This document shows, piece after piece, positions 2,395 to 17,298 of a stretch of DNA of 24,000 bases (position 1 is its first letter; every line of letters starts with the position of its first letter). The notes beneath the pieces were generated by a model. It was given only the letters and a program-made list of their open reading frames with translations, did not search any database and had not been told where the DNA came from. The translations under genes and the position numbers were made by a program. This DNA comes from an uncultured Burkholderiaceae bacterium (GTDB lineage Bacteria > Pseudomonadota > Gammaproteobacteria > Burkholderiales > Burkholderiaceae), in the NCBI GenBank assembly GCA_966212065.1, contig CBIHOQ010000016.1, positions 61,550-85,549 on the forward strand, in the 5' to 3' direction.

Positions 2395-3360
2395 TCAGGA
2401 AAGGAGCCTCGCCAGGACGGGCAGATCAACGTTGCCTCCGCTGACGAGCACGCCTATCCTTTTTCCGGAAACCGGGTAGACCTGCTGAAGTGCGGCGGCG
2501 GCGGCGAGGCAACCGGTCGGCTCGACCACGATTTTCATTCGCTGCGCGAAGAACCTCATGGTGTCGATCAACTGGCTGTCTGCCACGGTGACGATGTCGT
2601 CCACGTGGCGCCGGATCACCGCGAAGTTGTGATGCCCGACATGGGTGACCTTGGCGCCATCGGCGATGGTGTCGGGGACCGCGATATGAACGATCTCTCC
2701 TTTGCGCAGCGATTGCTGCCCGTCATTGCCCAACTCGGGTTCCACGCCGATGACCTTGCAGTGCGGGCTGATGCCGGCAGCCGCAAGCGCCGATCCGGCA
2801 AGCAAGCCGCCGCCTCCTAGGCATACCAGCAGCACATCGAGTTCGCCCACCTCTTCGAACAGTTCCAGGGCGGCAGTTCCTTGGCCACAGATCACGTCGG
2901 GGTGATCGTAGGGCGGGATGAGCGTCATGCCTTTCTCTTCGGCCAGGCGGCGGCCGATTTCTTCGCGATTCTCGGTGTATCGGTTGTAGGTAAGAACGTC
3001 GGCACCATAGTCCTTGGTGGCGCGTATCTTCGTTTCCGGCGCATCCTCCGGCATGATGACGGTGGCGGGAATGCCAATCATGCGGGCGGACAAGGCAATC
3101 GCCTGTGCATGATTGCCGGACGAATAAGTCAGCACGCCCTTGCGGCGTTGTTCGACGGAGAAGCGGGCCAGGGCGTTGTAGGCGCCCCGAAACTTGAATG
3201 CACCGATCCGCTGCAAGTTCTCGCACTTGAAGAACAGTTCCGCGCCTGCCATCTCGTTCGCCGTTCTTGATGTCAGGACGGGTGTACGGTATGCCACCCC
3301 TCTGATTCTGTCGGCAGCCTGCTGGATAGCTTGGAATGTCAGATACGCTGAATCGTTCAT
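2395..3360 (-). CDS. PLP-dependent serine/threonine dehydratase / serine racemase-family enzyme (fold type II)
   Basis: 321 aa. It carries the PLP-lysine motif GAFKFRGA, SSGNHAQA and the glycine loop CLGGGGLLAG, and the overall length is typical of the family. It is the first gene of the minus-strand operon, with a LysR gene divergent from it. Confidence 0.85.
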   Translation of the reverse strand: MNDSAYLTFQAIQQAADRIRGVAYRTPVLTSRTANEMAGAELFFKCENLQRIGAFKFRGAYNALARFSVEQRRKGVLTYSSGNHAQAIALSARMIGIPATVIMPEDAPETKIRATKDYGADVLTYNRYTENREEIGRRLAEEKGMTLIPPYDHPDVICGQGTAALELFEEVGELDVLLVCLGGGGLLAGSALAAAGISPHCKVIGVEPELGNDGQQSLRKGEIVHIAVPDTIADGAKVTHVGHHNFAVIRRHVDDIVTVADSQLIDTMRFFAQRMKIVVEPTGCLAAAAALQQVYPVSGKRIGVLVSGGNVDLPVLARLLS

Positions 3361-5643: not shown

Positions 5644-5976
5644 ATGATCGTGACAGTCTTTAGATCGAGGTTGAATGCTGGCGCCCAAGAGGAATACACA
5701 CAGTGGGCGACGCGGATGAGTATCCTGGCCCGCGACGTGCCAGGCTATGTTTCCCACAAGGGCTTCACCGCCGAGGATGGCGAACGTGTAACCATTGTGG
5801 AATTCGAGTCCGAAGAGGCAATGCGCGCCTGGGCAAAGCATCCCGAACACGTCGAAGCCAAGAAAAAAGGGCGTAGCACCTTCTTTGCGGAATACCGGGT
5901 GCAGATCTGCGAGGTGGTGCGTGATACGGCGGATCGCAGCAAGCCTCACCGCGCTGCAAGCAAGGTCTCGAGATGA
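5644..5976 (+). CDS. Antibiotic-biosynthesis-monooxygenase (ABM) domain protein
   Basis: 110 aa. The sequence MIVTVFRSRLNAGAQEEYTQWATRMSILARDVPGYVSHKGFTAEDGERVTIVEFESEEAMRAWAKHPEHVEAKKKG follows the ferredoxin-like ABM pattern. A strong GGAGGA RBS sits 7-12 nt upstream. The last 31 nt overlap the convergent Lrp gene. Confidence 0.8.
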   Translation: MIVTVFRSRLNAGAQEEYTQWATRMSILARDVPGYVSHKGFTAEDGERVTIVEFESEEAMRAWAKHPEHVEAKKKGRSTFFAEYRVQICEVVRDTADRSKPHRAASKVSR

Positions 5977-7751: not shown

Positions 7752-10301
7752 ATGTCCACACATTCCACGCTTAGCGTCGCATCCTCTCCGCAGGCAACGG
7801 GGCTCAATGCCCTGTTAACTAGCGGCCTGTCGGTCAGCTTTCCCCGTCTGGATACCGCTGATGCGATTGCGATCACACGCCGCGTTTACGGCATAGATGG
7901 GGCAGCTACGAGGTTTTCGACCGAGAAGGACGACACCTTTCGTATCGACGCCTGCGACGGCGCGCGGTACGTCTTGAAGATCTCGAACCCCGGCGAGACA
8001 GCTGAAGAGCTCGACTTGCAGGTGGCCGCGATGCGGCACGTCGCGCTCGTCGCGCCCCGGTTGCCGGTGTCGCGCGTGCTGCCAAGTATTGATGGACAAT
8101 TTATCGTGCCGCTCGCGTTAGCCTCATCCACGCAGCCGCACCGCACGGCGAGGCTCTACAGCTACCTCGAAGGCACGCCGCTCGACACACTGCACCCTAG
8201 CGCACGCAATCGATACGAGATCGGTGAGGTGCTGGCGCAACTGCGCCTGGCCATGGCCGACTTCCGGCATCCGCACGAGCACCGGGTGCTGGCTTGGGAC
8301 GTGAAGCACTTGGCGAGTCTCGCGGGGTTGCAGGCCCATATCGCCGACCCGTTGCACCGCTCGCTGATCGAGCAGGCATTCGCGCGCTTTGCGGCGATCG
8401 AACCGGCCTTACGCCGCTGTCCGACGCAAGTCGTGCACAACGACTTCAACCGCTCGAACATCGTCGCCAACGCAGGCGGCCCGAACTTCGTCAGCGGCAT
8501 CATCGACTTTGGCGACACCGTGCATACGGCGGTAGCCATCGATGTCGCCACGGCGGTCATGAATCAATTCCCGCTCGACTTCGACGCCGACGGCTCGCAC
8601 GACCTGTTTGTCGAGGCGCGCGACCTGCTGCGCGGCTATCTCGCGCATGCCGAGCTCAGCGCTGACGAACTGCTGCTGATTCCGCACCTGGCGATGGCGC
8701 GCGTCGCGGCGCGGGCCTTACTGACTTCATGGCGCGCCATGCTGTTTCCGGAAAACGAGGCCTACATCCTGCGTTTCACTCGGCCGGGATGGGAGCATTT
8801 GCGCTGGTTCATGCAACGCGACCATGACACCGTTTCCCATGCCTTGCTTGAGTTCGTCCGCCGACCCACTCGCTCCACCTCTCTTGAGCCCTCTATGAAC
8901 GCCACCCCCACGCCCATGCCGCAGCCGCCCGTCCTCAATCAAGCCGTCGATACCGGCAAACCCGCCGACAGCCTGCGCGGCGACATGCCGAACGGCTTCA
9001 ATCCCTCGGAGATCTCCCACCTCGACGCCGCCACGCAACAACACATCGCGCGCCGCCTACGGCTGCTCAGTCCGTCGTATCGCTTGTTTTACGCCGAGCC
9101 GGTAAAGATTGTGCGCGGCGAGAAGGTCTATCTGTACGACGATGAGGGCAACGACTATCTCGACGCCTACAACAATGTCGTCTGCGTCGGGCATGCCAAT
9201 CCGCGCATTGTCGATGCTGTTACCCGTCAGCTCTCGACACTCTGCACGCATACGCGCTACATGCAGGAGCCGATCCTCGACTATGCAGAGGACCTGCTCT
9301 CGACCTTCAACACGTCGATCCGCGAAGGGCAGATGATGTTCACCTGCACGGGTTCCGAGGCCAACGACCTGGCCATGCGCATCGCGATGCAGTACACCGG
9401 CAAGACAGGCGTGATCGTGACCAGCGAGGCCTATCACGGCAACTCTCACATCACCTCGAGTTTTTCGCCGTCGCTGGGCCGCAAGGCCTTGCTGGGCCCC
9501 TACGTGCGCACGGTACCGGCCCCCGACTCATACCGGATGACGCCGTCCGAGATCGGTCAGCGCATGGCCGAGCAAGTCGCGCTGCAGATCGAGGACATCC
9601 GCCGTCACGGCGGCGGCCTGGCCGCCTTCATCGCCGATTCTTTCTTCTCGTCGGATGGCGTCTTCGCGCACCCGACCGATGTGCTGGCGCCGGTGGCCGA
9701 GGTGGTGCGCCGCGCCGGCGGACTGTTCATCGCGGATGAGGTGCAATCGGGCTTCGGGCGCGGCGGTACCCACATGTGGGGGCACGAGCGCCACGGTGTC
9801 GTGCCCGATATCGTCACGCTGGGCAAGCCGATGGGCAACGGCTACCCGGTAGCGGGTCTGGTCGCGCGCCCCGAGGTCGTCGCCGGCTTTGGCCGGGACA
9901 TGCGCTACTTCAACACCTTCGGCGGCAATTCGGTGGCGGTCGCTGCCGCGCAGGCTACGCTCGACGTGCTGCGCGACGACTATGTGCTCGATAACGTGCA
10001 GCGGGTCGGCGCGATCATGCTCGAGGGGTTGAATGCGCTGGCAAAGAAATACGAATGCATCGGCGATGTGCGCGGCACCGGTCTGTATTTCGGCGTCGAG
10101 ATGGTGCGTGATCGCGCGAAGAAGGACACCGACATCGCGACGGCGCTCAAGGTCGTTAATGGCCTGCGCCAGCGGCGCGTGCTGATTTCGGCAACGGGGC
10201 CGGACGCGAGCGTGCTGAAGATCCGACCGCCGCTGGTGTTCGCGGCCAAGGACGCGGACCGCTTGCTGACGGAACTGGACGCCGTGCTCGCCTCGCTCTA
10301 G
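7752..10301 (+). CDS. Bifunctional fusion: APH-family (hydroxylysine-kinase / homoserine-kinase II-like) phosphotransferase plus a class-III aminotransferase-fold PLP enzyme (phospho-lyase-like)
   Basis: All residue numbers use track-ORF numbering (start 7707). The N-terminal domain (residues ~40-385) has the kinase catalytic loop VHNDFNRSN (243-251) and IIDFGD (265-270). A Pro/Thr-rich linker follows (~386-440). The C-terminal domain has YNNVVCVGHANPRIV, GSEANDLAMRIA, ADEVQSGFGRGG and the PLP-lysine motif DIVTLGKPMGNGYPVAG (AAG at 9825-9827). I prefer the ATG at 7752 over the TTG at 7707. Confidence 0.88.
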   Translation: MSTHSTLSVASSPQATGLNALLTSGLSVSFPRLDTADAIAITRRVYGIDGAATRFSTEKDDTFRIDACDGARYVLKISNPGETAEELDLQVAAMRHVALVAPRLPVSRVLPSIDGQFIVPLALASSTQPHRTARLYSYLEGTPLDTLHPSARNRYEIGEVLAQLRLAMADFRHPHEHRVLAWDVKHLASLAGLQAHIADPLHRSLIEQAFARFAAIEPALRRCPTQVVHNDFNRSNIVANAGGPNFVSGIIDFGDTVHTAVAIDVATAVMNQFPLDFDADGSHDLFVEARDLLRGYLAHAELSADELLLIPHLAMARVAARALLTSWRAMLFPENEAYILRFTRPGWEHLRWFMQRDHDTVSHALLEFVRRPTRSTSLEPSMNATPTPMPQPPVLNQAVDTGKPADSLRGDMPNGFNPSEISHLDAATQQHIARRLRLLSPSYRLFYAEPVKIVRGEKVYLYDDEGNDYLDAYNNVVCVGHANPRIVDAVTRQLSTLCTHTRYMQEPILDYAEDLLSTFNTSIREGQMMFTCTGSEANDLAMRIAMQYTGKTGVIVTSEAYHGNSHITSSFSPSLGRKALLGPYVRTVPAPDSYRMTPSEIGQRMAEQVALQIEDIRRHGGGLAAFIADSFFSSDGVFAHPTDVLAPVAEVVRRAGGLFIADEVQSGFGRGGTHMWGHERHGVVPDIVTLGKPMGNGYPVAGLVARPEVVAGFGRDMRYFNTFGGNSVAVAAAQATLDVLRDDYVLDNVQRVGAIMLEGLNALAKKYECIGDVRGTGLYFGVEMVRDRAKKDTDIATALKVVNGLRQRRVLISATGPDASVLKIRPPLVFAAKDADRLLTELDAVLASL

Positions 10302-10404
10302 TCAACGATGGCCGGTCGCGTCAAACCCGGCCGATCGTCGACAGGCGTCATGTTAGCGTCCGCGTCGGCCACCTATAATCGTGATTCCAACGACCCATCG
10401 CGAT

Positions 10405-11094
10405 ATGAGTGCACCGATTCCTAAACCGGCGAGCGTCGCCGAGGCGGCCAAGCCCACAGCCGTTCAAGCGCTGGCCGAGAAGCTCAAGACCCGCATCTTG
10501 AACGGCGATTTCGCGCCGGGCGAGTACCTGCGCGACATCAAGATGGCCGAGCAGTACGAAGTGTCGCGCAGCACGTTCCGCACGGCCGCGCAGTTGCTGG
10601 TCGCGCGCCGCATCCTGCGCCAAGTGCCCAATCGCGGGTTCTTCGTGCCGGAGTTCTCGGCCGACGACATCGTCGACGTAACGCGTTTTCGGGGCGTGCT
10701 CGAAGTCGAGGCGGTGAAGATGATCGTGCATACCGGGCACATTCCGGTCGAGGCGATCAATGCGGTCGAGCGGCTGCGGGATGCCCCCGACGACGCGCCG
10801 GTCTCGTTCATGGTGGAGGGGGATCGCGACTTTCATCGCGCGATTGTGGCGGCCAGCGGCAGCGAGCGGCTGCAACGCAGCTATGAAGCGATCGAGAGCG
10901 AGATCGAATTGCTGCTGGTGCAGCGCCAGCATTTCTACGAACACCCGAAGGAAATCGTGCGAGAGCACGAGCACTTGATTGCCTGCCTGAAGACGCGCGA
11001 CTTCGCGGCCGCGCGCGATGCCTTCCTCGAACACTGGGATGATCTGCGCGTCAGCCTGCTGCGCGTCGAGGCGAAGAAGGTGCGGGCGCGCTGA
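10405..11094 (+). CDS. GntR-family transcriptional regulator (FadR subfamily, FCD C-terminal domain)
   Basis: wHTH: GEYLRDIKMAEQYEVSRSTFRTAAQLLVARRILRQVPNRGFFV. The helical C-terminal domain contains DRDFHRAIV and REHEHL His residues, as in FCD domains. The start is uncertain (GTG 10381 or ATG 10405), and neither has a clear SD. Confidence 0.85.
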   Translation: MSAPIPKPASVAEAAKPTAVQALAEKLKTRILNGDFAPGEYLRDIKMAEQYEVSRSTFRTAAQLLVARRILRQVPNRGFFVPEFSADDIVDVTRFRGVLEVEAVKMIVHTGHIPVEAINAVERLRDAPDDAPVSFMVEGDRDFHRAIVAASGSERLQRSYEAIESEIELLLVQRQHFYEHPKEIVREHEHLIACLKTRDFAAARDAFLEHWDDLRVSLLRVEAKKVRAR

Positions 11095-11125
11095 ATGGGT
11101 CGTTGATCCAGCCATTCGCGGGCCA

Positions 11126-11617
11126 CTACTGAATGACCGTTCGTCCCGTGTGTCCGGAGGTCCAGCGGCGGCGCAGCCAGTGATCCACCGACAGCGTGCC
11201 CGCCCCGCGGCAGAGCAGCACGAGCAGCATCGCCGCCCACTGAATATGGGTCGGCCATGCCTGCGGGTAGACGAAGATCTCGATCACCGACGTCATGCCG
11301 AGCAGCACTAACGCCGCGGGCCGGGTCCCGAGCCCCAGCACGAGCAGAATGGGCGTGCTCAGTTCGATCGAGGTGCCGATATAAGCGGCGATCTCCGGCG
11401 GCAGCAGCGGCACCTTGTATTCATCGCGAAACAGCGCGAGCGCGGCGTCCCAGTTCGCGAGCTTGGCCATGGCGGAATTCCAGAAGACCGTCGCCACCGC
11501 GAGCCGCAGCGGGATCGCGAGCAGCCAATACGGCACTCGCTCTAGCCGCTTTGCGACGCGCAACAGCCGCGAGGGAACGGACGACGCATGGCGGTTGGTG
11601 GGTGTTAGGTCAGGCAT
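11126..11617 (-). CDS. DoxX-family membrane protein (fourth gene of the bufferin/gig-type operon)
   Basis: 163 aa from the ATG (complement of 11615-11617): MPDLTPTNRHASS...VPYWLLAIPLRLAVATVFWNSAMAKLANW...ELSTPILLVLGLGTRPAALVLLGMTSVIEIFVYPQAW, with four hydrophobic segments. The track ORF (to 11965) is over-extended in an Arg-rich frame across the upstream gene. It overlaps the upstream gene by 13 nt. Confidence 0.8.
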   Translation of the reverse strand: MPDLTPTNRHASSVPSRLLRVAKRLERVPYWLLAIPLRLAVATVFWNSAMAKLANWDAALALFRDEYKVPLLPPEIAAYIGTSIELSTPILLVLGLGTRPAALVLLGMTSVIEIFVYPQAWPTHIQWAAMLLVLLCRGAGTLSVDHWLRRRWTSGHTGRTVIQ

Positions 11618-12423
11618 GGCGATGATCCTCCAGAAGGAGATCCGGCGTCGGGCACCGACTCGGCATCGGCAAAGCATGCGCGCCCGAGCAGTAAGGCCAG
11701 AAGAGCGTACCCGTCCGTGCTTAGAGCGACAGACAGCGCGTCGCGAATCGCTTCGCCGGCAAAGAGTGCAGCAGCGATCCGGTACTCGCCATCGCCCAAG
11801 CGAAGGACCTCGACTCCTTCGGCCGTACGTTGCACGAGCAGGTGCACCGGACCATCGTCGAGTCGGATCGAATGCATCGCCGGGGCGTCCTGCTCGAGCA
11901 CCGCGCGCCAGATCGCATCGGCCGGAAAGGCGAAATGCGCGAGCCGTACCGCCGGATGCGGACACAGGCGCAGCGCGCCGAGCGCATCATCGTCAAGCAA
12001 TGCCAGACGTGGAAGGTCGAGTGTCGGGAGGGCCGGTGCATGCAACACGCTATTCACCTGCCACTCGAGATACGCGACACCGGCGAGATATGGCACCGAT
12101 GCTGTCTCCGGGAGTTGCGCGAGAAATGCGGGAAACGTCGCGCCATACTCGTCCAGCCATGCGCTATCCGGCGGCGATGCGTCGATGAAGCGTCGGACGG
12201 CTCCTTCAAAGCACTCCGCTCCAACGAGACGTTGCACGGCCGGAAACGCCAGGCGAATCGCATTCACCAGCACGCCGGTCGCCGTGTTGCGATAGATCGA
12301 CAGACGCGCAACGGGCGCGAGGCCGTCAGCCACGATCCACGCCTCGGCGTCTCCCCCCGCGCCGCGCAGATTTTCTCGAACCGCTCGCTGCAATTCAGCC
12401 AGCGTGGATGCGGGCGGGTTCAT
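11605..12423 (-). CDS. bufC: DUF2063-family protein (BufC/GigB-like partner of the DUF692 enzyme)
   Basis: The sequence LAELQRAVRENLRG...RLSIYRNTATGVLVNAIRLAFPAVQRLVGAECFEGAVRRFIDASPPDSAWLDEYGATFPAFLAQ...YLAGVAYLEWQVNSVLHAP carries the SIYRN / LxxxFP / YLxDxAxLEW pattern that I recognise for DUF2063. The start is at 12423 (MNPPAST) or 12453, overlapping the upstream gene by 29 or 59 nt. Confidence 0.78.
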   Translation of the reverse strand: MNPPASTLAELQRAVRENLRGAGGDAEAWIVADGLAPVARLSIYRNTATGVLVNAIRLAFPAVQRLVGAECFEGAVRRFIDASPPDSAWLDEYGATFPAFLAQLPETASVPYLAGVAYLEWQVNSVLHAPALPTLDLPRLALLDDDALGALRLCPHPAVRLAHFAFPADAIWRAVLEQDAPAMHSIRLDDGPVHLLVQRTAEGVEVLRLGDGEYRIAAALFAGEAIRDALSVALSTDGYALLALLLGRACFADAESVPDAGSPSGGSSPCLT

Positions 12424-13285
12424 ATCGAGCCGTCTCCAGTGCAAATTCTGCAATTGCCGCTTCCTGCATCAAGGTTTCCAGCGCCGGCACATCGGTGTCC
12501 CATTCGATCAGTGTCGGTACGGCGCCGAAACGGCGCAGCGCTTCGCGATACAGGGTCCAGACCTCGGGCGCGACGCGAGAGCCGTGATCGTCGATGCGCA
12601 GCGTGTGCCCGTCCTCGAACTGCCTGACGCTGTGACCCGCAAGATGAATCTCGCCGATCGACGCCGGCGGCAGCGCAGCGAGATAGGCCCGCGGATCCCA
12701 GCCGTGATTGCAGGCGCTGACGTAGATGTTGTTGACATCGCAAAGCAGGCCGCATCCTGTTCGTCGCGTGATTTCCGCGAGGAATTCCCATTCCGGAATG
12801 GTCGAGTGGACAAACTGCAGGTACGTGGACGGGTTTTCCACCAGAATCGGCCGCCCGAGTGCGTCCTGAACCTGGTCCATATGTCGGCACATGACGTCCA
12901 GCGCTTCCTCGGTCATCGGCAATGGCAGCAGATCGGCCAGATAGGTTCCGCCCACCGCACTCCACGCCACGTGCTCGGACACCAGATCGGGCTCGAAACG
13001 TCGCACCGTTGCGCATATGCGAGCCAGATGCGCGGCGTCCAGCCCATCGGGGCTGCCGAGGGACAGGCCCACGCCATGCAGCGACAGCGGGTAGTCGCGG
13101 CGGATGGCGTCCAGATATTGCGACGCCGTTCCGCCCCCCATGTAGTTCTCGGTGTGTACCTCGAACCAAGGGACAGCCGGCTTCTCATCAAGCACTGCCT
13201 GATGGTGCCGGAAGCGCAGGCCAACGCCCGCCCGCGCGGGGACTGGCCGTGGCGCCGCGCAATGCGATGGCGCGGATACGTTCAT
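12395..13285 (-). CDS. bufB: DUF692 / MbnB-like multinuclear non-heme iron oxidative enzyme (MNIO), BufB/GigA-like
   Basis: 296 aa from the ATG (complement of 13283-13285). Motifs: GVGLRFRHH, WFEVHTENYM, HGVGLSLGS, SEHVAWS, ILVENPSTY, LCDVNNIYVSA, HLAGH, LIEWDTD. These form the TIM-barrel metal-ligand pattern of DUF692. The track ORF (to 13456) is over-extended into the precursor gene. Confidence 0.88.
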   Translation of the reverse strand: MNVSAPSHCAAPRPVPARAGVGLRFRHHQAVLDEKPAVPWFEVHTENYMGGGTASQYLDAIRRDYPLSLHGVGLSLGSPDGLDAAHLARICATVRRFEPDLVSEHVAWSAVGGTYLADLLPLPMTEEALDVMCRHMDQVQDALGRPILVENPSTYLQFVHSTIPEWEFLAEITRRTGCGLLCDVNNIYVSACNHGWDPRAYLAALPPASIGEIHLAGHSVRQFEDGHTLRIDDHGSRVAPEVWTLYREALRRFGAVPTLIEWDTDVPALETLMQEAAIAEFALETARYEPARIHAG

Positions 13286-13299
13286 GGCGGAACCCGTCT

Positions 13300-13620
13300 T
13301 CAGCTGGCCTTGAGTTTGCCGCCCGCGATCTTGCTGCAGTCGCCGGCCGGCAGCAGCACGAAGGACTTCGCATCGCGAGCCTGCGTGGACTGGCCAGCGC
13401 ACGAATGGGCCCCTTCGGCGCAGTCGTTCTTGGCTACCGCGTTCACGCCGTAGCATTTTTCGAGGTGGTTTTGCGCCATCCTGGCCATGTTGTCTTTGAC
13501 GATCTGGGGCATATTGCTCATATCCTTCATGCCCTGCGCTTGCCCCGGGACGGCTTGCATGGCGAGCGCGAGCCCGACGGCGGCGGATAGCGAGGAAATG
13601 GCCGAAGCGGATTTGCTCAT
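13300..13620 (-). CDS. bufA: Secreted DUF2282 Cys-containing RiPP precursor (bufferin BufA1 / GigP-like)
   Basis: 106 aa from the ATG (complement of 13618-13620), preceded by an AGGAGA RBS. It has a Sec-type signal (MSKSASAISSLSAAVGLALAMQA), a Met-rich tract (MKDMSNMPQIVKDNMARMAQNH) and a core EKCYGVNAVAKNDCAEGAHSCAGQSTQARDAKSFVLLPAGDCSKIAGG. The four Cys are at residues 56, 67, 74 and 95. Only 14 nt separate it from the DUF692 gene. Confidence 0.85.
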   Translation of the reverse strand: MSKSASAISSLSAAVGLALAMQAVPGQAQGMKDMSNMPQIVKDNMARMAQNHLEKCYGVNAVAKNDCAEGAHSCAGQSTQARDAKSFVLLPAGDCSKIAGGKLKAS

Positions 13621-13669
13621 GGTGTGTTCTCCTGACGTGGGATCGCCGATGCGCGACCTTGTCAAAAAA

Positions 13670-13695
13670 TTCGCTCCGTCGCAGCCAAAGGTTAC
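13670..13695 (-). promoter_or_regulatory. ECF (SigF/ECF16-type) promoter candidate GTAACC-N16-CGAA driving the precursor operon
   Basis: The minus strand reads GTAACC tttggctgcgacggag CGAA. GTAACC is the complement of 13690-13695, the spacer is exactly 16 nt, and CGAA is the complement of 13670-13673. The element ends 49 nt upstream of the bufA ATG. As I recall it, this matches the promoter consensus published for Caulobacter SigF. Confidence 0.6.
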
Positions 13696-13757
13696 TCAGC
13701 GTGCCGAAAATTTTTTGCGCCGCTTTTTGCGCTGCGTCTTAAGAGGATCGATGGGTC

Positions 13758-14411
13758 ATGACTGACGAGAAAGGCCATCGGCGACGCCGCATCCATCTGG
13801 TCCGGCCGGCACCCGGACCGGAACGCGGCGTCGGCGCGCAGGCCGCAACCCGGGAGGACGGATCGCCCGACTGGTCGATGCTGATGGCATGTGCGCAGAT
13901 CGGCGACAAGGACGCGTACCGGCGCTTGCTCGAGAGCATCGCGCCGTACCTGAGGCGCCTCGCTGCGCGCCGCGGCGTGCATCCGGATGCCGTCGAAGAC
14001 GTCGTTCAGGACATTCTCGCGACGATCCACCAGGTGCGTCATACGTATGCGCCCGAGCGGCCGTTCGGGCCCTGGCTGGTGTCGATCGCGAGCCGGCGCA
14101 TCGTCGATGCATTGCGGCGGCAGGGGCGCGCGGTATCGCGCGAAGTGCCGCTCGATCCGGAACATGAAACCTTGCAGGGTGACGGAGCGAATCTTATGGA
14201 AGAAGCGGCGGATGCGCGCGTGCTGCGCGAAGTGCTCGCCCAGTTACCGCCAGGTCAGCGCGAGGCGATCCGGATGCTGAAGCTCGAGGAGATGTCGTTG
14301 AAGGAAGCGGCCGTGGCGACCGGCATGACCCTAGGCGCGTTGAAGGCCGCGGTCCATCGCGGGCTCAAGGCGTTGCGCAGGTTGTTGGAAAAGCAGGGGA
14401 ACCGGCAATGA
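13758..14411 (+). CDS. ECF-type RNA polymerase sigma-70 factor (SigF/RpoQ-like)
   Basis: Region 2: DAYRRLLESIAPYLRRLAARRGVHPDAVEDVVQDILATIHQVRHTY...FGPWLVSIASRRIVDALRR. Region 4: LPPGQREAIRMLKLEEMSLKEAAVATGMTLGALKAAVHRGLKALRRLL. An AAGAGGA RBS ends 10 nt upstream of ATG 13758. An alternative internal start at 13878 would remove a 40-aa N-terminal extension. Confidence 0.88.
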   Translation: MTDEKGHRRRRIHLVRPAPGPERGVGAQAATREDGSPDWSMLMACAQIGDKDAYRRLLESIAPYLRRLAARRGVHPDAVEDVVQDILATIHQVRHTYAPERPFGPWLVSIASRRIVDALRRQGRAVSREVPLDPEHETLQGDGANLMEEAADARVLREVLAQLPPGQREAIRMLKLEEMSLKEAAVATGMTLGALKAAVHRGLKALRRLLEKQGNRQ

Positions 14412-15067
14412 GGCGTTCGACGTCCGAACTGATCGAATCGCTGGTGGCCGACAGTGCGCCGGTGCGTCCGCTGCGTCGCCCGCTTTGGCGGGCGACGGGC
14501 TGGCTGATGTTTGCGGCGCTGCTGCTGCTATCCGTCGCCGTCGCCCAGGGCTTGCGCCCGGATTTGCCGCTCAAGCTGCACGAGCGCGTGTTCCTCACGG
14601 GTGTCGTGACTGCCGCGGCAACGGGCGGCCTGGCCGCCGTCGCCGCGTTTATCGCCAGCGTACCGGGGCGCTCGCTGCGCTGGTTGTTGCTGCCGCTACC
14701 GGCGCTGCTCGTTTGGACGTCCATGATCGGCTACGGTTGCCTGACGAACTGGATCGAGATCGGTCCCGACGGTATCTCGCCCGGCGAAACCGCGCGCTGC
14801 TTCGCGACGCTCGTGCTGACCAGTGTGCCGCTTTCGCTGACGTTGTTAGTCATGCTGCGCCATGTCGCACGCCTCGCGCCCGTGCCGGTGGCGATGACGG
14901 GGGGGCTTGCCGTCGCCGCGATGACCGCCGTGGCGTTGTCGCTGTTCCATCCTCTCGACGCGACGGTAATGATCCTTGCGTGGAATCTCGGTTTGACGGT
15001 CGTCCTGTTGATCGGTAGCGCATGCTACGGCCCGCGATTGTTCCACTGGGTCGAATCGCATTCGTGA
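14408..15067 (+). CDS. nrsF: DUF1109 / NrsF-family membrane anti-sigma factor
   Basis: 219 aa, starting in an ATGA overlap with the sigma gene stop. The N-terminus MRRSTSELIESLVADSAPVRPL resembles the DUF1109 start, and about six hydrophobic TM segments follow. Cys residues sit in predicted loops (GYGCLTNW, ETARCF). Confidence 0.78.
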   Translation: MRRSTSELIESLVADSAPVRPLRRPLWRATGWLMFAALLLLSVAVAQGLRPDLPLKLHERVFLTGVVTAAATGGLAAVAAFIASVPGRSLRWLLLPLPALLVWTSMIGYGCLTNWIEIGPDGISPGETARCFATLVLTSVPLSLTLLVMLRHVARLAPVPVAMTGGLAVAAMTAVALSLFHPLDATVMILAWNLGLTVVLLIGSACYGPRLFHWVESHS

Positions 15068-15101
15068 CCCACTGCATTGAGCCTTCTCCGTTAAAATAAG
15101 T

Positions 15102-15137
15102 TGTAAAGTACGCTACCTATGTGTAGTGTATTTTACA
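15102..15137. promoter_or_regulatory. Imperfect 15-bp inverted repeat in the AT-rich nrsF-chrB gap (candidate ChrB operator or RNA hairpin)
   Basis: TGTAAAGTACGCTAC (15102-15116), a 6-nt spacer (CTATGT), then GTAGTGTATTTTACA (15123-15137). 13 of 15 positions are complementary. The right arm ends on the A of the preferred chrB ATG. Confidence 0.35.
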
Positions 15138-16117
15138 TGACGACATTAACCACCTGGTCTGTCCTCGTCCTGACGTTCCCAACCGAGAACGCCACTGCGC
15201 GCATGCGGGCATGGCGGGCGCTGAAAGCGAAGGGGTGCGCCGTCCTGCGTGACGGCATCTATCTATTGCCGCATACCGTCGAGCGTGAGGACATGCTGCG
15301 CGAACTCGCTGCCAGCATCGATGATGCCGGCGGTACCGCGCATCTGCTGCGGGCGCAAAGTCTGAACTCGTCGCAGGAAGCAGACTTTCGCGCACTGTTC
15401 GATCGGAACGACGATTACGCGACCTTTGTCTCGGCGTTGGGAATCGCGCGGAAAACGCTGGGAGGCCAGTCACCGGCAGAGGTCACCCGCCTGCTGCGTC
15501 GCCTGCGCAAGGACTATGACGCGATCCGGCTGATCGACTATTTCCCGGGCGCGGCATCGACCGAGGCCGAAGTGGCCTGGGAAGACTTCCTGGCGCTCGC
15601 GGATACGGTCCTGTCGCCGGGCGAGCCGCATGCGGCTGAGCGGGTTATCCGGCGCCTGCAGCGCGACGACTATCAGGCACGGACGTGGGCGACCCGGCAA
15701 CGGCTATGGGTCGATCGCGCCGCGAGCGCCTGGCTGATCCGCCGCTTCATCGATCCGCAGGCGCGCTTCGTGTGGCTCGTGTCGCCGAAGGCCTGCCCGC
15801 AGGAGGCGCTTGGCTTCGACTTCGACGGCGCCGCCTTTACGCATGTGGGCGAGCGCGTGACGTTCGAGGTGCTGGTCGTGAGCTTCGGTCTCGATGACGA
15901 CGCGGCGCTTCTTCGGCTCGGCGAAATGGTGCATGCGTTGGATGTCGGCGGCACGCCGGTGCCCGAGGCGATTGGTTTTGAGGCGGTGATGGCCGGCATG
16001 CGGCAACGCGCGTTGGACGACGATCAACTGCTCGAGGAGATAGGTCGCGTGTTGGATTCAATCTACGCACACTTTGCGGTGAGCACAAAAAACGGCAACG
16101 CAGGGGGCCGGCCATGA
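15137..16117 (+). CDS. chrB: Chromate resistance regulator/sensor protein ChrB
   Basis: N-terminal WSVLVLTFPTENATARMRAWRALKAKGCAVLRDGIYLLP (ChrB N-domain pattern). C-terminal WVDRAASAWLIRRFIDPQARFVWL...GFDFDGAAFTHVGERVTFEVL (ChrB C-domain pattern). It lies directly upstream of chrA, with an ATGA overlap. The start is ATG 15137 or 15119. Confidence 0.85.
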   Translation: MTTLTTWSVLVLTFPTENATARMRAWRALKAKGCAVLRDGIYLLPHTVEREDMLRELAASIDDAGGTAHLLRAQSLNSSQEADFRALFDRNDDYATFVSALGIARKTLGGQSPAEVTRLLRRLRKDYDAIRLIDYFPGAASTEAEVAWEDFLALADTVLSPGEPHAAERVIRRLQRDDYQARTWATRQRLWVDRAASAWLIRRFIDPQARFVWLVSPKACPQEALGFDFDGAAFTHVGERVTFEVLVVSFGLDDDAALLRLGEMVHALDVGGTPVPEAIGFEAVMAGMRQRALDDDQLLEEIGRVLDSIYAHFAVSTKNGNAGGRP

Positions 16118-17298
16118 ACACCACGACGGCGACCCAACCCGGCTACACGCTCGGCCAGCTGGCCCTTTACATGCTGCGGCTCGGAGCCTTCGGTTTTGGC
16201 GGCCCGGTGGCGCTCGTCGGCTATATGCACCGCGACCTCGTCGAGCGCCGGGGCTGGATCAGCGAACAGGACTACAAGGAGGGGCTGGCGCTGGCTCAAA
16301 TGATGCCTGGGCCGCTTGCCGCGCAACTCGGCATTTATCTCGGTTACGTACATTACCGCGTTGTTGGCGCGACGCTGGCGAGTATCGCCTTTGTATTGCC
16401 TTCATTCCTGATGGTCGTCGCGCTGGGTTGGGCCTATGCCCGGTTTGGCGGCCTGCCCTGGATGCAGGCGGTCTTCTACGGCGTCGGTGCCGCGGTGGTC
16501 GGAATCATTGCGATGAGCGCCTACAAGCTGACTAGAAAGACCGTCGGCACAGACAGGCTGCTGTGGGCGATATTCCTGACGCTCGCGGCCGTGACCGTTG
16601 CCACCGAATCCGAAATCGCGTGGCTGTTTATCGCGGGGGGCCTGCTCAACTGGTTCTGGCGGGCGCCGCCGAAATGGCTACACAAGGGCGGACTGAATGC
16701 GCTTGCGATGACGCAGACAGCGGCTTTGAGCGGCGTTTTCAGCGGTATCGACCTATCTTTGCTCGGCCAGATCGGCGCTTTTTTCGCCAAGGCCGGCGCG
16801 TTTGTGTTCGGCTCGGGACTCGCGATCGTGCCGTTTCTCTACGGTGGCGTGGTGACCGAACACCACTGGCTCAACGACAAGCAATTCGTCGATGCCGTGG
16901 CTGTGGCGATGATCACACCGGGACCGGTCGTCATCACGGTCGGGTTCATCGGTTATCTCGTCGCCGGATTTTCGGGGGCCTGCGTCGCCGCGCTCGGCAC
17001 CTTCCTGCCTTGCTATCTGTTCACGGTGCTGCCGGCACCGTACTTCAAGAAATACGGCAGGCTGCCCGCCGTCAAAGCGTTCGTCGACGGCATCACGGCT
17101 GCGGCGGTCGGGGCCATTACCGGCTCAGTGATTGTCATCGCACGAAGGTCCATCGTCGACTGGCCGACCATCGCACTCGTCCTTGTGACGGTCGTGCTGC
17201 TCTGGCGCTTCAAGAAACTCCAGGAGCCGGTGATCGTCGTCGCGGCGGCCCTGTTCGGTCTTGTTGTCTATCCGCTCATTCATTCTCACGCTATCTAA
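16114..17298 (+). CDS. chrA: Chromate ion transporter ChrA (CHR family)
   Basis: 394 aa, with the duplicated CHR-domain architecture. First half: FGGPVALVGYMHRDLVERRGWISEQDYKEGLALAQMMPGPLAAQL. Second half: VFGSGLAIVPFLYGGVVTEHHWLNDKQFVDAVAVAMITPGPVVITVGFIGY. Confidence 0.92.
   Translation: MNTTTATQPGYTLGQLALYMLRLGAFGFGGPVALVGYMHRDLVERRGWISEQDYKEGLALAQMMPGPLAAQLGIYLGYVHYRVVGATLASIAFVLPSFLMVVALGWAYARFGGLPWMQAVFYGVGAAVVGIIAMSAYKLTRKTVGTDRLLWAIFLTLAAVTVATESEIAWLFIAGGLLNWFWRAPPKWLHKGGLNALAMTQTAALSGVFSGIDLSLLGQIGAFFAKAGAFVFGSGLAIVPFLYGGVVTEHHWLNDKQFVDAVAVAMITPGPVVITVGFIGYLVAGFSGACVAALGTFLPCYLFTVLPAPYFKKYGRLPAVKAFVDGITAAAVGAITGSVIVIARRSIVDWPTIALVLVTVVLLWRFKKLQEPVIVVAAALFGLVVYPLIHSHAI

Follow-up and report, generated by a model that had tools for sequence, protein, structure and literature searches.

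The DNA studied here places a bufferin operon back to back with the gene for an extracytoplasmic function (ECF) sigma factor, and the question it raises is whether that sigma factor directly drives the operon. We analyzed a stretch of 24,000 nucleotides from an uncultured Burkholderiaceae bacterium (the window) together with the rest of its genome and orthologous loci. A sequence matching the promoter of ECF16-type sigma factors lies on the minus strand in front of the bufferin precursor gene bufA. Judging from sequence, we put at roughly 0.85 the probability that it is the promoter of bufA-bufB-bufC-doxX and would be read by RNA polymerase carrying the adjacent sigma factor. A second, imperfect copy lies inside the sigma gene itself and is probably a promoter for the anti-sigma gene.

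Gene content of the locus

Profile matches agreed with the gene identities that an earlier note had proposed from the letters of the window, namely a DUF2282 precursor, an MNIO enzyme, a divergent ECF sigma factor and NrsF (Table 1). A DUF2282 precursor, a BufB-type MNIO, a DUF2063 protein and a DoxX protein occur together, as in a bufferin (buf1-type) cluster, whose precursor bears a signal peptide and a core containing Cys. The candidate ATG of the DoxX gene, at 11617, is accompanied by a GGAGG ribosome-binding site. On the other strand, a sigma factor with regions 2 and 4 is followed in the same operon by NrsF, forming a sigma/anti-sigma pair. The sigma start codon is conserved in orthologues, and the nrsF start overlaps the sigma stop by 4 nt.

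The genes chrB and chrA (15119-17298, plus strand) start 51 nt after nrsF, and the gap contains no terminator-like site. This linkage of nrsF to chrBA was not seen in the orthologous loci examined.

Table 1 Features of the bufferin locus, with positions counted from the first nucleotide of the window.
Feature	Coordinates	Strand	Remarks
DoxX-family membrane protein, bufD-like, last gene of the operon	11126-11617	-	Pfam PF07681
bufC, DUF2063 partner protein	11605-12423	-	Pfam PF09836
bufB, MNIO maturase	12395-13285	-	NCBIfam NF050167 (MNIO_BufB), 384.7 bits, cut-off 310
bufA, DUF2282 bufferin precursor, 106 aa	13300-13620	-	Pfam PF10048, 72 bits
Predicted bufA 5' leader	13621-13664	-	Ribosome-binding site GGAGA at 13628-13632
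Putative buf operon promoter, ECF16/SigF-type	13670-13695	-	Exact match; boxes conserved in orthologues
-10 box CGAA	13670-13673	-	
-35 box GTAACC	13690-13695	-	Separated from the -10 box by a 16-nt spacer
A6T4 tract	13707-13716	-	Between the sigma gene and the buf promoter, 12-21 nt upstream of its -35 box
ECF sigma factor, ECF16-like, 217 aa	13758-14411	+	Divergent from bufA; Pfam Sigma70_r2, r4_2
One-mismatch motif copy, GAAACC-N16-CGAA	14166-14191	+	Sigma codons 137-145, in the sigma2-sigma4 linker
nrsF, NrsF/DUF1109-family anti-sigma factor	14408-15067	+	Pfam PF06532, 93.3 bits, cut-off 26.8

An ECF16-type promoter motif in front of bufA

Read from 13695 to 13670, the minus strand is GTAACC-tttggctgcgacggag-CGAA. 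Direct reading and a pattern search agreed on this exact GTAACC-N16-CGAA match, which the earlier note had described as ending 49 nt before the bufA ATG; with the ATG at 13620, that distance is correct. No other exact match occurs in the 24 kb window. Dinucleotide-preserving shuffles of the window gave a mean of 0.02 matches, and at least one match appeared in 2 of 100 shuffles. The GTAACC hexamer occurs six times (at 29, 5788, 7541, 13690, 16342 and 20876), and none of the five hexamers other than that at 13690 is followed by CGAA after 16 nt. The earlier note had made the same statement for hexamers at 29, 7541, 16343 and 20876. It had overlooked the one at 5788 and misplaced the one at 16342 by a single position, and its statement holds for all five.

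The note had named GTAACC-N16-CGAA as the consensus of Caulobacter SigF. The same sequence was published as the SigF-binding sequence, mapped by 5'RACE upstream of CC3254 and CC2907 (Kohler 2012, PMC3511200), and the consensus of the ECF16 group is tGTAACc-N16-CGAA (PMC3420878; PMC8315932). The site at 13670-13695 has exactly these boxes and this spacing. It is also in sense orientation to bufA, close to it and conserved in orthologues. A promoter scan found no sigma-70-like promoter in 10200-15300.

We predict that bufA transcription starts at about 13661-13664, because known starts of this promoter class lie 9 nt after CGAA (Cupriavidus metallidurans rpoQ) or 6 bp after the -10 box (Bradyrhizobium japonicum ecfF). 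The resulting leader of about 41-44 nt would carry the GGAGA ribosome-binding site. The bufA leader is strongly conserved among Burkholderia orthologues. Its predicted first 20 nt or so (13641-13664, minus strand, TTTTCTGACAAGGTCGCGCA) are almost invariant in nine Burkholderiaceae orthologues and are not conserved in Cupriavidus or Paraburkholderia PGU19. We considered the leader segment TGACAAGGTCGC as a wider regulatory element and dropped it, since its conservation does not extend beyond close Burkholderia orthologues. Upstream of the -35 box, an A/T-rich tract occurs at the same place as the A6T4 tract in most orthologues and in C. metallidurans; the tract is possibly UP-like.

Conservation of the promoter boxes

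We aligned the intergenic regions of nine Burkholderiaceae loci. The sequences GTAACCTTT and GA(G/C)CGAA are invariant in all nine, while the spacer differs between loci, as does the sequence preceding the -35 box. Counting plasmid and alphaproteobacterial loci, invariant boxes with diverged spacers were seen in at least 12 orthologous loci. P. phenoliruptrix, C. necator N-1, Paraburkholderia PGU19 and Virgifigura likewise have the exact motif before bufA, and a version with an N15 spacer takes its place in Nitrobacter, B. glumae and P. fungorum. In loci with an assignable bufA start, this start lies 46-56 nt from the end of the motif, the exception being Nitrobacter with 80 nt. Canonical SigF loci from the same genus or order (n = 10) carry exact copies too, mostly as divergent pairs.

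In Virgifigura deserti the bufA-type promoter is present twice (1634-1659 and 2838-2863 of the extracted locus) with near-identical sequence, and a short sigma-like fragment lies between the two copies. This arrangement suggests a local duplication.

Motif copies in the rest of the genome

The genome comprises 5.25 Mb in 105 contigs, with 63% GC and 99.9% completeness. The public sequencing runs listed for it were three metagenomic DNA runs, with no RNA run among them. The genome-wide scan proposed in the earlier note returned seven exact copies of GTAACC-N16-CGAA. Other spacings of 10 to 23 nt gave 1 to 11 matches, so the exact motif is not enriched genome-wide, and the case for the bufA promoter rests on position and conservation. 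Two of the seven copies are coherent, the one at bufA and one in front of a second nrsF. We found the other five unconvincing as a regulon: they directly abut the ATG of an MFS transporter gene, fall within coding sequence or on its opposite strand, neighbor a hairpin, or precede unannotated open reading frames.

These genome-wide figures are what would be expected if the motif were a chance match in a GC-rich intergenic region and the operon used another promoter, as an exact motif no commoner than other spacings and mostly found in implausible places might suggest. We regard this as very improbable. By arithmetic from the genome-wide frequency, a sense-oriented match within 200 nt upstream of bufA would arise by chance with a probability of about 1e-4. 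In addition, a chance match would not account for boxes held invariant at a near-constant distance from bufA in at least 12 loci with diverged spacers, and no sigma-70-like promoter turned up to take its place.

The second coherent copy (contig C69, 2603-2628) stops 8 nt short of the ATG of an orphan nrsF. This gene matches the NrsF model with 220 bits and lies behind a gene for a TlpA-like redoxin, with no sigma gene next to it. If transcription starts 9 nt after CGAA here as well, the orphan nrsF mRNA may be leaderless. In relatives, nrsF genes of this type are paired with a canonical sigma factor, and the motif lies 28 nt upstream. Two sigma searches found no canonical sigF partner in this genome, and the flanks of the orphan nrsF share no synteny with the relatives. 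Contig C69 (14.6 kb) may be mis-binned, the genome being metagenome-derived.

A second DUF2282-MNIO-DUF2063-DoxX operon lies on contig C44 (noted at 2403-2648, minus strand, of the extracted piece), divergent from an FMN-reductase gene. Its upstream region contains no SigF-type motif with up to one mismatch, and this operon is presumably regulated differently.

The sigma factor that would read the bufA promoter

Searches of the 99.9%-complete genome with two queries, the window sigma and a canonical sigma of the same genus, found a single ECF16-like sigma factor, that of the window. Direct control of buf by the adjacent sigma is the simplest reading because no other ECF16-like sigma was found. 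The earlier note had interpreted the motif as the promoter through which the divergent sigma drives the RiPP operon; consensus, layout, conservation and the lone candidate sigma all favor that interpretation.

It is conceivable that the promoter is a genuine ECF16-type one and that buf is not simply under the adjacent sigma/NrsF pair, with the orphan NrsF, another regulator or read-through dominating instead. The second nrsF, a stronger match than that of the window (220 versus 93 bits) and placed on another contig behind its own exact motif, leans in this direction. So do genomes, such as that of a relative in the same genus, that carry both types of system with the same boxes, making cross-talk possible. 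Among studied systems, CC2748 of Caulobacter is only partly SigF-dependent (PMC3511200), and the gig genes of C. metallidurans were assigned to a distant RpoH promoter, and their dependence on RpoQ could not be demonstrated. Against this, the genome yielded no other ECF16-like sigma, the homologous Caulobacter promoter depends solely on SigF, and the C. metallidurans motif search appears to have used boxes in reverse-complement order (see below). We consider such indirect control improbable, although less so than a chance match, and retain direct control by the adjacent sigma as the main reading.

The steps of buf control, including the start site, the dependence on this sigma and the inducing signal, are ones we infer from model systems. 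The membrane anti-sigma NrsF would keep the sigma factor inactive until envelope stress frees it; the signals in studied systems are copper, chromate, cadmium and oxidants. Transcription would then begin about 6-9 nt after CGAA. The product would be a secreted, MNIO-modified, copper-binding peptide.

A motif copy embedded in the sigma gene

On the plus strand, no copy with up to two mismatches lies upstream of the sigma gene (13758) or of chrB. The window thus has no autoregulatory copy upstream of the sigma/anti-sigma operon, a feature that is typical and not obligatory. The earlier note had seen no such motif at either gene. This was right for the upstream regions and missed a one-mismatch copy inside the sigma gene, which ends 216 nt before the nrsF ATG.

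The embedded copy recurs in the clade of sigma/NrsF pairs to which the window belongs, a clade with chromosomal and plasmid-borne members in Beta- and Alphaproteobacteria. It is present at the same codon, in frame 0 every time, in 22 of 29 clade loci, and its distance to the sigma stop is 211-223 nt; three more of the 29 have two mismatches at this site. In the plasmids of B. glumae and P. fungorum the copy is exact, with GTAACC encoding V-T (E replaced by V). One lineage has a T residue in place of the A and still keeps the CG.

Its constant frame and the conservation across the clade of the four residues encoded by the boxes (E-T and A-N) could mean that the site is a conserved protein motif of the sigma linker rather than a DNA element. 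Several observations make this unlikely. The six residues between the boxes vary freely. Across 15 lineages, 67 codon columns are conserved in amino acid, and the only two that use a single codon are E137 (GAA) and A144 (GCG), both within the motif. Overall in these genes, GAA accounts for 0.45 of the codons for Glu and GCG for 0.44 of those for Ala; the probability of these frozen codons is about 1e-11 with lineages taken as independent, which somewhat overstates the significance. The third base of N145, which falls outside the motif, is free (AAT in nine lineages, AAC in six). The V-T substitution in two lineages improves the promoter match, and the T-for-A lineage retains the CG bases.

The distribution of the copies also argues against a protein motif. 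The 22 loci that carry the internal copy all lack a same-strand copy in front of the sigma gene. Of the ten canonical loci, eight have the upstream copy and none has the internal one. The two layouts are mutually exclusive, as no locus examined carries both.

We therefore return to the promoter reading. The embedded copy is probably a functional sigma-dependent promoter of nrsF, lodged in the one region of the sigma gene able to accommodate it. It is probable that in this clade the usual self-activating sigma promoter has been replaced by one built into linker codons, and that active sigma raises only NrsF. Sigma-dependent transcription of nrsF only would give negative feedback with no positive autoregulation. 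Here the nrsF transcript might also continue into chrBA, whose placement could put chromate efflux behind the internal promoter, in this genome alone. Such wiring was described in none of the papers searched. If the reading is true, the clade combines an inducible anti-sigma with a non-autoregulated sigma, an arrangement that could be probed by purely synonymous mutations.

Distribution and divergence of the sigma/NrsF pair

A close orthologue of the sigma factor was found in one of 24 genomes of the same genus searched (84% identity). Close relatives (74-84%) occur in Trinickia dabaoshanensis and several Burkholderia genomes, and more distant ones in Alphaproteobacteria. The gene also sits on plasmids and chromids of Burkholderia, Paraburkholderia, Cupriavidus, Nitrobacter and Rhizobium. 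Such a scattered occurrence, often on plasmids, suggests that the locus is mobile.

Between the clade of the window sigma and NrsF and the canonical ECF16 pairs of the same genus, identity is only about 35-41%. The anti-sigma factors of the ten canonical loci resemble the second NrsF of this genome. For the sigma factor, the best NCBIfam model was PRK12512, at 148.8 bits and below its cut-off of 198.

We aligned NrsF sequences from the clade and the canonical type; the alignment took in no Caulobacter or Bradyrhizobium sequence. The window NrsF keeps C131, which is invariant in the alignment, and has no cysteine aligned to the second cysteine of the orphan NrsF2. Instead, it and three aligned clade relatives share C115, in a GCLT-W motif. 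The B. japonicum anti-sigma OsrA senses through Cys129 and Cys179, and C179 is needed for the stress response (PMC3420878). With no cysteine aligned at the second conserved position, the signal sensed by the window NrsF, or its way of sensing, may differ from that of canonical ECF16 anti-sigma factors.

Comparison with known systems

The closest described counterpart is the SigF-NrsF system of Caulobacter crescentus/vibrioides, whose motif at CC3254-CC3257 (buf1ABCD) is identical to that of the window. CC3254 and CC2907 are DUF2282 genes heading DUF692/DUF2063(/DoxX) operons, and activity of the CC3254 promoter requires the -35 box and depends on SigF alone (PMC3511200). The bufferin paper places both buf1 and buf2 of Caulobacter in the SigF regulon (PMC11626156). 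The gene set of CC3252-CC3257 also matches that of the bufferin locus, with DUF2282-DUF692/MNIO-DUF2063-DoxX divergent from an ECF sigma gene that is followed by DUF1109/NrsF. The two differ in that Caulobacter has a highly similar promoter before sigF, whereas the window has none there and carries its copy inside the sigma gene. In addition, the host of the window is a betaproteobacterium (Burkholderiaceae), its sigma factor has a 40-residue N-terminal extension, its NrsF has a different cysteine pattern, and chrBA follows nrsF on the same strand. The sigma-bufferin circuit is already known, and the bufA promoter is an ordinary further example of it. If our reading holds, a mobile version of the locus in Burkholderiaceae shares the Caulobacter SigF/ECF16-bufferin circuit down to the individual promoter boxes.

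Two rhizobial systems share parts of this design. In B. japonicum, EcfF-OsrA uses the same promoter class, given as GTAAC(g,a)-N14-15-(c,t)CG(t,a), and a DUF1109 anti-sigma (PMC3420878), but the EcfF regulon comprises methionine sulfoxide reductases, not bufferins. In Sinorhizobium meliloti, the RpoE7-EcfR7 pair lies beside a DUF2282-like/DUF692/DUF2063 operon, the whole set being SMb20527-20532, and this divergent operon, SMb20530-20527, is the strongest induced target of the ECF16 sigma RpoE7 (PMC6180224). Unlike the window, S. meliloti has a GTAACA -35 box, an upstream copy of the motif for rpoE7 itself, no internal copy and a sigma factor only 32% identical.

The RpoQ-RsqA system of C. metallidurans CH34, with the metallophore genes gigPABT, is a Burkholderiaceae system with the same divergent layout and exact GTAACC-N16-CGAA copies. 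It belongs to the canonical type, with an NrsF2-like anti-sigma and a sigma factor 39% identical to that of the window, and it has an autoregulatory promoter upstream of rpoQ. We found two exact divergent copies in the gigP-rpoQ intergenic region of the megaplasmid, at 1315203-1315228 (plus strand) and 1315143-1315168 (minus strand), the latter facing gigP, the bufA homologue. A 2026 transcriptome paper (PMC13492112) mapped a start site, TSS_1315237, 24 bp upstream of rpoQ, which metals induce and which disappears when rpoQ is deleted; counted from the last A of the plus-strand copy, this start is 9 nt downstream. The same paper reported no ECF16 motif at rpoQ or gig, could not demonstrate RpoQ dependence of gig expression and assigned gig to a distant RpoH promoter. 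It prints the ECF16 boxes as -35 AATTCG and -10 GGTTAC. In our reading of its Table 4, these are CGAATT and GTAACC written as reverse complements and in swapped order, and a search with boxes in reverse-complement order would explain why the motif was missed. With the boxes swapped, the published failure to find the motif is no evidence against the promoter model. The exact copies before both rpoQ and gigP bear on whether RpoQ controls the gig metallophore genes. This discrepancy and the probable embedded nrsF promoter are more useful outcomes of the comparison than the bufA promoter itself, which adds little to the circuit known from Caulobacter.
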